Shown: in pieces, positions 49,376 through 59,924 of the stretch
Numbering within the stretch: the stretch's first letter is position 1
Layout of the letters: each line of letters opens with the position of its first letter
Source: Escherichia coli
GTDB taxonomy: Bacteria > Pseudomonadota > Gammaproteobacteria > Enterobacterales > Enterobacteriaceae
Assembly: GCF_045037415.1 (NCBI RefSeq)
Contig: NZ_CP173438.1
DNA length: 64,000 nucleotides
Strand: one strand, 5' to 3'
The notes under the pieces: generated by a model
The model's input: the letters and a program-made list of their open reading frames with translations, nothing else
What the model was told of the DNA's origin: nothing
Database searches by the model: none
Translations under genes and position numbers: made by a program

Positions 49376-50461
49376 ATGAAGACGTTTCCTCTGCAAAGCC
49401 TGACGCTTATTGAGGCGCAGCAAAAGCAGTTTGCGCTGGTGGACACGATTTGCCGTCATTTTCCTGGCAGCGAGTTTCTTACCTGCGGTGATTTGGGCTT
49501 AACGCCGGGGCTAAATCAGCCCCGCATTACCCAGCGTGTGGAACAGGTGCTGGCTGACGCGTTTCACGCACAGGCCGCGGCGCTGGTACAGGGCGCGGGT
49601 ACTGGCGCGATCCGTGCGGCGCTGGCAGCTTTGCTCAAATCGGGGCAGCGTCTTCTGGTGCATGACGCGCCGGTTTATCCAACGACGCGCGTCATTATTG
49701 AGCAGATGGGGCTAACGCTCATTACGGCTGATTTCAATGATCTGTCGGCACTGAAGCAGGTTGTTGACGAGCAACAACCTGATGCCGCGCTGGTGCAGCA
49801 TACGCGCCAGCAGCCGCAGGACCGCTATGTGCTGGCAGACGTGCTGGCAACGTTGCGCGCGGCAGGTGTTCCAGCGTTAACCGATGACAACTATGCGGTG
49901 ATGAAGGTAGCGCGAATCGGCTGCGAATGCGGGGCGAATGTGTCGACATTTTCCTGCTTCAAGCTATTTGGGCCAGAGGGCGTTGGTGCGGTGGTAGGCG
50001 ATGCCGATGTTATTAGCCGGATTCGCGCCACGCTCTATTCCGGCGGCAGTCAGATTCAGGGGGCGCAGGCATTAGAGGTGTTGCGTGGTCTGGTGCTCGC
50101 GCCAGTGATGCACGCGGTGCAGGCGGGGGTATCTGAACGGTTGCTGGCTTTGCTTAACGGCGGCGCGGTGGCGGAAGTGAAAAGCGCCGTCATTGCCAAT
50201 GCACAGTCGAAGGTATTGATTGTGGAGTTTCATCAGCCGATTGCCGCCAGAGTGCTGGAAGAGGCGCAGAAACTCGGTGCCTTGCCTTACCCGGTTGGTG
50301 CAGAGTCGAAATATGAAATCCCGCCGCTCTTTTATCGACTTTCCGGAACGTTTCGCCAGGCGAATCCGCAGTTAGAACATTGCGCGATTCGCATTAACCC
50401 AAATCGCGGCGGTGAAGAGACGATATTGCGGATCTTGCGTGAAAGTATTGCCAGCATTTAA
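49376..50461 (+). CDS. yhfS: YhfS, PLP-dependent aminotransferase-like protein
   Basis: 361 aa; last gene of the yhf cluster. Confidence 0.85.
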   Translation: MKTFPLQSLTLIEAQQKQFALVDTICRHFPGSEFLTCGDLGLTPGLNQPRITQRVEQVLADAFHAQAAALVQGAGTGAIRAALAALLKSGQRLLVHDAPVYPTTRVIIEQMGLTLITADFNDLSALKQVVDEQQPDAALVQHTRQQPQDRYVLADVLATLRAAGVPALTDDNYAVMKVARIGCECGANVSTFSCFKLFGPEGVGAVVGDADVISRIRATLYSGGSQIQGAQALEVLRGLVLAPVMHAVQAGVSERLLALLNGGAVAEVKSAVIANAQSKVLIVEFHQPIAARVLEEAQKLGALPYPVGAESKYEIPPLFYRLSGTFRQANPQLEHCAIRINPNRGGEETILRILRESIASI

Positions 50462-50568
50462 TCGTTGTAAACGATATTTTCGAAAAGAATGCAGAAACAA
50501 ATACGCCCTCGGATAACTCCGAGGGCGTCAGGCAATTAAACCGGCGTTAGCCGATTTCTGTCAGAGAC

Positions 50569-50736
50569 TTACTGTGCAGTCGGACCGCAACCGCCAATGA
50601 TTTTAGAAATAGAAATTGCCGGGTGCAGCAGGTAGTCGTAAGAGCAGTTCTTATCACGGTTTTCAATATGACCAGTACATGCAGTTAACGTAGCCAGTAC
50701 TGCGCCTACCAGTGCAACTTTAATAAATTTGTTCAT
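50569..50736 (-). CDS. yhfL: Small lipoprotein YhfL
   Basis: Not in ORF track (55 aa): minus-strand translation MNKFIKVALVGAVLATLTACTGHIENRDKNCSYDYLLHPAISISKIIGGCGPTAQ with lipobox LTAC. Confidence 0.85.
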   Translation of the reverse strand: MNKFIKVALVGAVLATLTACTGHIENRDKNCSYDYLLHPAISISKIIGGCGPTAQ

Positions 50737-50957
50737 TTACATTCCCTATGTATTATATATTAATTAATATTCATTGATTATATGAATATAAGCAGACTGC
50801 TCATTAAGAACGATACAGGAATATTCAATTAGCGTCAGTGAGCGATTGGCTTAATTTTGTAAGTTGCTGTAACGGTGAATATAACCCATTAGCAGACAAT
50901 ATTTATTAAGGGGTTATATTTTTATCTGCTGAATATATAAAGAGAGTTGTAAACGAA

Positions 50958-50985
50958 AAAGGCCAGACTTCTCTGGCCCTGGTTA
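50958..50985 (-). terminator. Rho-independent terminator downstream of cysG
   Basis: ggccagag-aagt-ctggcc hairpin followed by a T-run on the minus strand. Confidence 0.6.
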
Positions 50986-50987
50986 AA

Positions 50988-52361
50988 TTAATGGTTAGAG
51001 AACCAGTTCAATTTATCGCGCAGGCCAACAACCCGACCAATAATAATTAGCGATGGACTGTTCATTTGCTGCGCCAGTTCGCCCAGCTGCGTGAGCGTAC
51101 CGTCAATCACGCGCTGCGTGACTGCCGTTCCGTTTTCGACAATTGCTACCGGCATTTCACCAGGCATACCGTATTCAATCAGCTTTTGCTGAATAGTTGC
51201 AGCCTGATTCAGCCCCATATAAAACACCAGCGTCTGTTTTTCTGCCGCCAGGTTTTCCCAGTCCAGCTCGCCACCGGTTTTTAAGTGTCCAGTAATTAAG
51301 CGTACGCTCTGGGCATAATCGCGATGCGTGAGCGGAATACCCGAATAGGCAGAGCAACCAGAGGCTGCGGTAATACCCGGAACCACCGAGAATGGAATAC
51401 CCGCGTTGCACAGTGTTTCCAGCTCTTCGCCACCACGGCCAAAAATAAACGGATCGCCGCCTTTCAGCCGCACCACGCGTTTGCCTTTTTGCGCTTCCCG
51501 CAGCAGGATCTGGTTAATCTCTTCCTGCGGTACGCAGTGGTATCCCGCGCGTTTGCCGACGAAAACGCGATCAGCATCGCGGCGTACCAGATTCATAATA
51601 TCGTCAGAAACCAGACGGTCGTAGACCACCACATCTGCCTGCTGAATTTGTTGCAGACCTTTCAGTGTCAGCAGCCCGGCATCGCCCGGACCTGCACCAA
51701 CCAGCACCACTTCACCGCGATGATCGAGCGGTTCATTGATTAACTGTTCGGTGGTTTCAGTAATGGCTTTCTGATCGTTGTTGGCCAGCGACTGCGCCAG
51801 GCGGTCATTAACGAACAATTTCTCCCAGAAACGGCGACGCTCACCCATCGTGGCGAACTGTTGTTTCACTCGCCCGCGTAATTGCCCGGCGTATTTCGCT
51901 ACCTGGCCCAGATGTAACGGCAGCAGTGATTCGAGTTTTTCGCGCAACAGGCGCGCCAGAACCGGAGAGGTGCCGCCAGAGGAAACCGCTACCATGAGCG
52001 GCGAGCGGTCAATAATCGACGGCATAATAAAGCTGGCGGCTTTCGGCGCATCGACCACGTTACAGAAGATGCGACGAGCTTCAGCGGCTTCGCTGACGCG
52101 CTGGTTAAGCGCGTCATCATCCGTCGCTGCAATCGCCAGCCAGCAGGTGTCGAGAAGGCTTTCATCAAATGGCCCTTCGACGAGGGTTAACATGCCTGCA
52201 TCTGCCCATGCGGTGAACTGTGGAATAAACGCTAATGCATTCACCGTTAAGCGAGCGCCTGCGTCTAACAGCAACCTTGCTTTGCGTTCCGCGACATCAC
52301 CACCGCCGACAATCAGACAGTCGCGATCGCGTAATTGGCAAAATATAGGCAAATGATCCAC
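50988..52361 (-). CDS. cysG: Siroheme synthase (uroporphyrinogen-III methyltransferase / dehydrogenase / ferrochelatase)
   Basis: 457 aa; N-terminal Rossmann plus C-terminal SUMT domain. Confidence 0.95.
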
Positions 52362-57883: not shown

Positions 57884-58465
<582 letters not shown>

Positions 58466-58569
58466 TGATTTCTCGCGCGGGCAATCTTGCCCGCGCTTCT
58501 GCTCTCCCGGCGTAACCCGGATTTGCCGCTTATACTTGTGGCAAATGGACACGTTCAGGGAGGCATCAA

Positions 58570-58737
58570 GTGAAGAAACTCACCGATAAGCAAAAGTCCC
58601 GTCTCTGGGAGCTTCAGCGTAATCGTAATTTCCAGGCCAGTCGCCGTCTTGAAGGCGTCGAGATGCCTTTAGTCACTCTTACTGCCGCAGAGGCTTTAGC
58701 GCGCCTTGAAGCGCTGAGGAGGCACTATGAGCGATAA
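58570..58737 (+). CDS. yhfG: YhfG, small protein (FicA-type antitoxin-like partner of Fic)
   Basis: Not in ORF track (55 aa, GTG start): (M)[54 protein letters not shown]; overlaps fic start by 11 bp. Confidence 0.75.
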
Positions 58738-59329
58738 ATTCGGCGAAGGGCGCGATCCATATCTCTACCCGGGTCTCGATATCATGCGTAACAAGCTCAA
58801 CATCCGCCAGCAGCAGCGGCTGGAACAGGCCGCTTACGAAATGACGGCGCTGCGTGCTGCGACCATTGAGCTTGGTCCGCTGGTGCGCGGTTTACCGCAT
58901 TTGCGCACTATCCATCGCCAGCTGTATCAGGATATTTTCGACTGGGCAGGGCAACTGCGTGAAGTTGATATTTATCAGGGAGATACGCCGTTCTGCCACT
59001 TTGCCTATCTCGAAAAAGAGGGCAATGCCCTGATGCAGGATTTGGAGGAAGAGAAGTATCTGACTAGCCTTGAGAAAGATAAATTCGTCGAGCGGTTGGC
59101 GCATTACTATTGTGAAATCAACGTGCTGCATCCCTTCCGGGTGGGAAGTGGTTTGGCACAGCGGATCTTCTTCGAGCAACTGGCGATTCATGCCGGATAT
59201 CAACTGAGCTGGCAGGGTATCGAAAAAGAGGCCTGGAATCAGGCAAATCAGAATGGGGCAATGGGGGATCTCACCGCGCTGCAGATGATATTTAGCAAAG
59301 TGGTAAGCGAAGTCGGGGAATCTGAGTAA
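58727..59329 (+). CDS. fic: Fic-family protein (filamentation induced by cAMP)
   Basis: 200 aa; Fic fold with motif region reading [12 protein letters not shown]. Confidence 0.9.
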
Positions 59330-59360
59330 AATAGCGCGGTTCTTTCGTACCGGAGCCGCC

Positions 59361-59924
59361 ATGATCCTGCTTATTGATAACTACGATTCTTTTACCTGGA
59401 ACCTCTACCAGTACTTTTGTGAACTGGGGGCGGATGTGTTGGTTAAGCGCAACGATGCGTTGACGTTGGCGGATATCGACGCCCTTAAACCACAAAAAAT
59501 TGTCATCTCACCCGGCCCCTGTACGCCAGATGAAGCCGGGATCTCCCTTGACGTTATTCGTCACTATGCCGGGCGTTTGCCGATTCTTGGCGTCTGCCTC
59601 GGTCACCAGGCAATGGCACAGGCATTTGGCGGCAAAGTTGTGCGCGCCGCAAAGGTCATGCACGGCAAAACCTCGCCGATTACACATAATGGTGTGGGCG
59701 TATTTAAGGGGCTGGCAAATCCACTCACCGTGACACGCTACCATTCGCTGGTGGTGGAACCTGACTCATTACCGGAGTGCTTTGAAGTGACGGCCTGGAG
59801 CGAAACCCGCGAGATTATGGGGATTCGCCATCGCCAGTGGGATCTGGAAGGTGTGCAATTCCATCCAGAAAGTATTCTTAGCGAACAAGGACATCAACTG
59901 CTGGCTAATTTCCTGCATCGCTGA
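59361..59924 (+). CDS. pabA: Aminodeoxychorismate synthase component II (glutamine amidotransferase)
   Basis: 187 aa class I GATase (GVCLGHQ catalytic Cys). Confidence 0.95.

Follow-up and report, generated by a model that had tools for sequence, protein, structure and literature searches.

The yhfG-fic Locus

The window, i.e., the whole stretch of 64,000 nucleotides of Escherichia coli DNA analyzed here, contains two overlapping genes on the plus strand, yhfG and fic, encoding a small inhibitory partner of the FicA type and a class I FIC-domain protein (Table 1). An earlier note on this DNA had described a yhfG of 55 aa with a GTG start that overlaps fic by 11 bp, and both the open reading frame calls and the RefSeq annotation bear this out: RefSeq places the same two coding sequences on K-12 MG1655 and on a stretch of E. 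coli strain 4/1-1 that is 100% identical. The short overlap suggests that the translation of both genes is coupled.

Table 1. Features of the yhfG-fic locus, with positions in the window.
Feature	Position	Strand	Description
Stem-loop just past the ppiA stop codon	58475..58496	+	10-nt perfect inverted repeat; -21.4 kcal/mol, z = -3.6
7-nt perfect inverted repeat	58521-58527 and 58540-58546		ATTTGCC/GGCAAAT; brackets TATACT, upstream of yhfG
Conserved block, putative fic promoter	58523..58544	+	TTGCCGCTTATACTTGTGGCAA; across genera TTGC(C/T)GCTTATACTTGTGGCAA; -10-like TATACT at 58531-58536
Shine-Dalgarno sequence of yhfG	58558..58563	+	GGGAGG, 6 nt upstream of the GTG; invariant in six aligned loci
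yhfG (ecficA)	58570..58737	+	GTG start, 55 aa; FicA-type inhibitory partner
YhfG inhibition motif [S/T]xxxE[G/N]	58639..58656	+	S24-R-R-L-E28-G29, read from the sequence
Shine-Dalgarno sequence of fic	58716..58722	+	GAGGAGG, within the 3' end of yhfG; GGAG core invariant in six loci
yhfG/fic overlap	58727..58737	+	11 bp, ATGAGCGATAA
fic (ecficT)	58727..59329	+	ATG start, 200 aa; class I FIC-domain protein
G55 codon	58889..58891	+	site of the classical fic-1 filamentation mutation G55R; wild-type Gly in the window
FIC signature motif H135-R146	59129..59164	+	V139, S141, and L143 replace D/E, N, and the first Arg

Both proteins fall into established families. YhfG matches PF10832 in Pfam (E = 1.3e-24) and Fic matches the Fic/DOC family PF02661 (E = 2.1e-13; 51.4 bits compared to a cut-off of 24), and the NCBIfam equivalogs PRK10204 and PRK10347 are recovered with 127 bits (cut-off 77) and 423 bits (cut-off 181), respectively. 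Chain A of PDB entry 5JFZ aligns to the Fic protein of the window with an E-value of about 1e-128 (3e-129 to 1e-128), and YhfG is identical to chain B of 5JFF in 53 of 55 residues. All residues that form the core of the Fic/DOC superfamily, HxFxxGxGxxxR, are present in Fic, namely H135, F137, G140, G142, and R146, and the Ser, Glu, and Gly of the inhibition motif in YhfG are invariant in six orthologues. Since the small upstream gene encodes this motif and since the two genes overlap as ficA and ficT do, Fic is assigned to class I, and the gene layout is that of a FicA/FicT pair, in agreement with what had been noticed from the sequence before. It is practically certain that the two genes form the wild-type yhfG-fic operon of the E. 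coli chromosome, EcFicA/EcFicT.

E. coli Fic is the founding member of the Fic family, which was named after the fic-1 mutant 40 years ago; the glycine affected by the classical mutation is the same in all 113 homologues aligned. The names ecficT and ecficA for fic and yhfG were introduced by Stanger, Harms, Dehio, and Schirmer, who solved two structures of the complex (Stanger et al., PLoS One 2016; PMC5033356), and a literature search for newer work on the mechanism of fic-1/G55R returned none beyond this paper.

Signals for Transcription and Translation

Upstream of yhfG lies a stem-loop with a variable loop and a stem core, GCGGG/CCCGC, that does not vary among five genera. This element, which has a weak T-tail, likely is the terminator of ppiA and would form the upstream boundary of the yhfG-fic unit. 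Between the stem-loop and yhfG, 21 of the 22 positions of a sequence block are invariant across Escherichia, Salmonella, Citrobacter, Klebsiella, and Leclercia, with a spacer around it that varies, and the block occurs only once in the window. The fic promoter is described, with reference to Hiratsu (1995) as cited in PMC3141248, as one of few promoters for which dependence on sigma-S is biochemically established. Based on the conservation across genera together with this literature, the block would represent the sigma-S-dependent fic promoter; a scan of 58380-59420 for the sigma-70 promoter consensus yielded no site. The block is overlapped by a perfect inverted repeat, the core of which, TTGCC/GGCAA, is kept across the genera, except that three of them show one C to T change. 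This repeat could be an operator overlapping the promoter; DNA binding is not known for FicA-type antitoxins.

Both genes are preceded by conserved Shine-Dalgarno sequences. In Klebsiella yhfG starts with ATG at the same position, and the sequence CACTATGAGCGATAA around the gene overlap is invariant across the five genera. Downstream, fic and pabA are separated by 31 nt, and a terminator scan revealed no terminator on the plus strand between the two genes; the four hits that it returned fall within coding regions or on the opposite strand and, at an expectation of 1.2, resemble chance matches. As the gap is short and carries no terminator-like element, read-through from fic into pabA appears plausible. 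A search with Rfam models at gathering thresholds yielded no match in the whole 64-kb window.

The Fic Signature Motif Departs From the Canonical Motif at Three Positions

The earlier note had placed the signature motif at 59133-59168, which is 4 nt off and out of frame, and had described correctly its three departures from HxFx(D/E)GNGRxxR. At position 5, where canonical proteins carry the acidic residue that coordinates Mg2+, Fic of the window contains V139; the Asn at position 7 is replaced by S141 and the first Arg at position 9, which binds the beta-phosphate of ATP, by L143. The catalytic His and the last Arg are present as H135 and R146. In the same alignment columns obtained with HMMER the active AMP-transferases Fic-1 (8WT0) and VbhT (3SHG) read HPFREGNGRAQR and HPFREGNGRTLR, respectively.

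An alignment with the reference protein, which had been proposed as a check, answers whether this is a strain variant: all 12 residues of the motif are identical in the Fic protein of the window, in MG1655, and in the crystallized chains of PDB entries 5JFZ and 5JFF, and the motif is that of the reference protein. The canonical motif HxFx[D/E]GNGRxxR was looked for in reference E. coli Fic and not found. L143 is encoded by TTG in the window and by CTG in K-12, a synonymous difference with which an artefact of local sequencing is ruled out; together with the identity across thousands of genomes it excludes the translation or sequencing error that had been considered as a possible refutation. 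That the motif reflects a mutation of this strain, an error in sequencing or assembly, or pseudogenization has a negligible probability, given the identical motif in K-12 and the PDB structures, the presence of the locus in 5425 of 5426 genomes, the TTG/CTG difference at L143, and the intact, full-length open reading frame with a dN/dS of about 0.05-0.1, and nothing was found in favour of any of these readings.

The three changes correspond to those described for the EcFicT clade, in which the first Arg is replaced by a hydrophobic residue throughout, the acidic residue by a hydrophobic one that is almost invariably Leu or Ile, and the Asn by Ser in about half of the members, with Ser at this central position judged to be structurally tolerable (PMC5033356). 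Biochemically, K-12 YhfG and Fic form a stable and tight 1:1 complex with a melting temperature of 63°C, which is lowered by 10°C in the YhfG variant E28G, and in the crystal structure E28 of YhfG and R146 of Fic are joined by a salt bridge (PMC5033356). Neither auto-adenylylation nor adenylylation of targets was detected for EcFicT, even with the inhibitory Glu of the inhibition motif mutated, and judged from the structure ATP is probably not bound (PMC5033356). Very probably, Fic is not a canonical AMP-transferase. The RefSeq name of the protein is 'putative adenosine monophosphate-protein transferase', and two reviews, citing Harms (2015), ascribe to E. coli FicT growth inhibition or the adenylylation of gyrase and topoisomerase IV (PMC10886550, PMC7758455). 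These statements conflict with the report from 2016, in which the same primary authors state the opposite on adenylylation (PMC5033356), and both the RefSeq name and the statements on gyrase adenylylation are probably wrong for the EcFicT clade.

Conservation of the Altered Motif in Escherichia coli and Its Relatives

With a query of 891 bp covering both genes, the locus was found in 5425 of 5426 complete E. coli genomes, nearly always as a single chromosomal copy and with 95-100% identity. All of the 120 best cluster representatives (at least 76% identity), which come from Escherichia, Salmonella, Citrobacter, Klebsiella, and Leclercia, carry a motif of the form HPFR[LIVF]G[SN]G[LMI]AQR, and none is canonical. 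Position 139 is accordingly Leu, Ile, Val, or Phe in 120/120 close homologues and position 143 is Leu, Met, or Ile in all of them, while position 141 is divided within the clade between Ser (69) and Asn (44). Within the motif H135, P136, F137, G140, G142, Q145, and R146 are invariant in the 113 homologues that align without gaps, and outside of it the same applies to Y12, T40, G55, Y67, F71, E79, Y83, and A178; A36 is kept in 110 of these 113.

To place this clade within the wider family, an exhaustive HMMER scan was performed on representatives of clusters at 50% identity, which yielded 2536 clusters at E<=1e-10, of which the best 150 were analyzed; 142 of these cover the motif. Among these best 142 representatives 115 are fully canonical, and the first Arg is present in 130, Asp or Glu in 129, and Asn in 132. 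Residues other than Arg at the first-Arg position are almost confined to the EcFicT-like cluster and its fragments, and they co-vary with the changes E36 to A, F67 to Y, and Y71 to F. Read from these alignments, the altered motif would be a derived state within a canonical family. One representative (P0122; 200 aa, 66% identical to Fic of the window) carries the intermediate motif HPFFVGSGRAQR, in which the acidic residue and the Asn are already replaced while the first Arg is kept, along with Q36, F67, and F71, and its active site may represent an intermediate between the canonical and the EcFicT-like type. The scan of cluster representatives reproduces independently the phylogenetic analysis and the analysis of specificity positions reported earlier (PMC5033356).

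Two observations concern unusual forms of the gene pair. Public assemblies contain in-frame fusions of YhfG and Fic (P0002, 252 aa with 15 member sequences, and P0006, 233 aa), which arise by frameshift or deletion at the gene overlap (junction ...EELRVTMSDKF...) and would convert the two-protein class I system into a single chain resembling class II; they are encoded on short contigs, and sequencing errors or laboratory constructs are possible. In E. coli MS 21-1 (NZ_CP146670.1; locus L002, 3497-5905) fic is split by ISEc10, an IS21-family element (istA/istB), and yhfG is intact. Such a natural disruption fits with fic being a dispensable gene, and a fic deletion is reported to be viable (PMC5033356).

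Selection and Genomic Context

The ratio of non-synonymous to synonymous substitutions (dN/dS) was estimated by the Nei-Gojobori method for the window, K-12, Salmonella, C. koseri, Klebsiella, and Leclercia. Between genera dN/dS is 0.03-0.12 for fic and 0.05-0.20 for yhfG, compared to 0.04-0.09 for the neighbour pabA and 0.02-0.04 for ppiA, all of these ratios being approximate as dS between genera is saturated (>1). Both genes are clearly constrained by purifying selection, in the case of fic to a degree similar to the adjacent housekeeping gene pabA. A decaying pseudogene is ruled out by the dN/dS of fic and by the intact open reading frames in all homologues examined. The proposal that the protein may be catalytically altered or inactive thus holds in its first part, given that adenylylation was not detected and ATP is probably not bound (PMC5033356), and inactivity in the sense of a decaying gene is disfavoured by a purifying selection as strong as that acting on pabA.

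The gene order nirB-tsgA-ppiA-yhfG-fic-pabA-argD-yhfK is also found at the loci of Salmonella, Citrobacter, Klebsiella, and Leclercia, and gene lengths and the overlap of 11 bp are the same at these four loci as in E. coli. The pair is a vertically inherited locus of the core genome and not a mobile toxin-antitoxin cassette, in line with the vertical transmission and conserved synteny reported for ecficTA (PMC5033356). A mobile type II toxin-antitoxin module or a gene of a defence island was considered and rejected, since the distribution is not patchy: the genes occupy one chromosomal site in 5425 of 5426 genomes and synteny is fixed in five genera. With PADLOC, Fic (58727-59326) matches only the 'phage defence candidate' profile PDC-S04 (E = 3e-75), a match that reflects the Fic domain rather than the context, and the fixed setting in the core genome argues against a role in a defence island. 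Elsewhere in the window, the fructoselysine operon frlABCDR is absent at 50461-50988: directly next to yhfS (49376-50461) come yhfL (about 50573-50737, minus strand) and then cysG. The K-12 MG1655 chromosome has about 5 kb with frlA-frlR between yhfL and yhfS.

The Allele of the Window

The pair in the window is the same gene pair as EcFicT/EcFicA of E. coli K-12 (UniProt P20605; PDB 5JFF/5JFZ), with which it shares the lengths of 200 and 55 residues, the 11-bp overlap, the signature motif, the SRRLEG motif, and the neighbours ppiA and pabA, and from which it is distinguished by allelic differences only. Compared to MG1655, 8 of the 200 residues of Fic differ (96% identity; R23K, I95L, G110K, V113T, G114S, A118D, S176N, and A196V) and 2 of the 55 residues of YhfG (E48A and S51R), all of them outside both the signature and the inhibition motif and away from the specificity-determining positions reported before. 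By homology, and with unchanged interface motifs, the 1:1 complex and the bridge between E28 and R146 that were characterized for the K-12 proteins would be expected to carry over to the allele of the window.

The nucleotide substitutions in fic relative to K-12 are clustered, with nine in 40 bp (58759-58798, codons 11-24) and 14 in 55 bp (59042-59096, codons 106-124), compared to about 0.7% substitutions in the rest of the gene. The second patch gives rise to G110K, V113T, G114S, and A118D in a stretch that is otherwise strongly conserved; as position 114 is Gly in 112 of 113 family representatives, the allele of the window is the derived one. An exact patch of 81 bp is found in 567 of 5426 E. 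coli genomes and a nearly identical one in 130 more, many of them from human isolates, so that the allele is present in about 13% of E. coli genomes and is common in a subset of E. coli lineages. The clustering suggests recombination over a short tract or the remodelling of a surface stretch in a particular lineage.

A further difference concerns position 27 of Fic, which is His in chain A of both 5JFZ and 5JFF and Arg in MG1655 and in the window. His27 also occurs in a few database sequences (P0004, P0080), and the residue in the crystallized construct probably is an allelic difference of the strain from which the gene was cloned.

Comparison With Characterized Fic Proteins

Active FicTA modules of class I are known from VbhT/VbhA of Bartonella schoenbuchensis and Fic-1/AntF of Pseudomonas bijieensis 2P24; both toxins AMPylate GyrB and VbhT modifies ParE as well. 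These systems share with yhfG-fic a small antitoxin that is encoded upstream and contains [S/T]xxxE[G/N], and the same fold with a reported RMSD of about 0.9-1.0 Å, and the Fic protein of the window is similar in sequence to Fic-1 (E = 1e-47) and to VbhT (E about 8e-33; 5e-33 to 8e-33). However, VbhT and Fic-1 carry the canonical HPFREGNGR..R and have demonstrated AMP-transferase activity and toxicity, whereas the protein of the window has Val, Ser, and Leu at the three positions and its K-12 counterpart has no detectable adenylylation activity (PMC5033356). Moreover, VbhTA is plasmid-borne and fused to a secretion signal, whereas the E. coli pair is a fixed chromosomal locus.

Altered FIC motifs that support a chemistry other than AMPylation are found in Doc of the Doc/Phd system of phage P1, which phosphorylates EF-Tu, and in AnkX of Legionella, which transfers phosphocholine (PMC5033356). 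Both are a precedent for neofunctionalization of the kind proposed for EcFicT. The motif of the window matches neither that of Doc, HxFx[D/N][A/G]NKRxxR, nor that of AnkX, HxFxDANGRxxV. Both proteins keep a basic residue at the first-Arg position, where EcFicT has Leu. In AnkX the basic residue at this position contacts a phosphate of the substrate (PMC5033356).

Functional Interpretation

The reading that we prefer is that the wild-type yhfG-fic pair encodes a non-AMPylating, neofunctionalized enzyme with a donor other than ATP, and we assign to this explanation as a whole a probability of roughly 0.6. Fic keeps H135, both glycines of the anion nest, and R146, and the hydrophobic residues V139 and L143 replace the acid that binds Mg2+ and the Arg that binds the beta-phosphate. 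Throughout the syntenic enterobacterial clade this altered motif is fixed and under purifying selection, as would be expected if the protein works in a changed function and is not a relic. Fic would then not be a gyrase-AMPylating toxin; it would rather use a non-ATP donor bound in the clade-specific hydrophobic groove formed by A36, T40, Y67, F71, and V139 to modify an unidentified target, YhfG would gate this activity via R146, and both genes would be transcribed from the sigma-S-dependent fic promoter, probably on into pabA. The groove is conserved and was proposed before as the site for an unidentified non-ATP substrate (PMC5033356). The main argument for preferring retained catalysis is the invariance of H135 in combination with an inhibitor that specifically blocks R146. 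That Fic is an active enzyme with a new substrate, a part of the reading that is drawn from conservation, is by itself about evenly balanced, as a catalytically dead binding protein would give the same conservation at many residues.

Such a binding protein is what the most serious rival assumes, in which Fic is a pseudoenzyme that has kept its fold and its interaction with YhfG for non-catalytic binding, sequestering, or scaffolding and that transfers no group at all. Purifying selection fits a binding role just as well, in vitro assays detected no activity (PMC5033356), and both the viable fic deletion and the natural IS21-family insertion that splits fic in MS 21-1 fit such a protein. However, neither the catalytic His nor an inhibitor plugging the active site would obviously be needed by a pure scaffold, yet H135, the nest glycines, and R146 are invariant, as are the inhibitory Ser, Glu, and Gly of YhfG, and the clade-specific residues line the groove beside the signature loop (PMC5033356). 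On balance we regard the pseudoenzyme as less likely than the neofunctionalized enzyme. That Fic has instead remained a toxin of the FicT type, which AMPylates GyrB and ParE and arrests growth once it is freed from YhfG, is far less probable still. The architecture is that of active FicTA modules and the similarity to VbhT and Fic-1 is substantial (5e-33 to 1e-47), the two reviews mentioned above list E. coli FicT as growth-inhibiting or gyrase-adenylylating (PMC10886550, PMC7758455), and the fic-1 allele causes filamentation, a phenotype that is also caused by the gyrase-targeting Fic-1 (PMC13327609, PMC7758455). Against this stand the lack of auto- and target-adenylylation when the inhibition motif is mutated and an active site in which ATP is probably unbound (PMC5033356), the absence of the first Arg and of the acid in every close homologue, with the Arg kept in 130 of 142 distant relatives, and the vertical inheritance at a fixed housekeeping position, unlike that of mobile toxin-antitoxin modules.

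Returning to the neofunctionalized enzyme, a more specific version can be put forward tentatively, and we hold it at somewhat below even odds: proteins of the EcFicT clade may perform an undescribed post-translational modification in which H135 mediates transfer from a non-ATP donor in the groove, gated by YhfG and switched on in stationary phase, and the allele of the window might alter partner recognition. The idea of a modification with a non-ATP donor was already proposed by Stanger et al. (2016; PMC5033356), and only the observation on the allele is added here.

Significance for the Fic Family

The finding at this locus is a rediscovery of a textbook locus, the motif deviations of which were analyzed structurally and phylogenetically in 2016 (PMC5033356); the three motif changes as well as their reading as altered catalysis were published at that time, and the window adds nothing new to them. 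The mechanism of the founding member of the Fic family was still termed elusive in 2026 (PMC13327609). The data presented here confirm that its altered active site is the fixed state of a vertically inherited enterobacterial clade that is under purifying selection.
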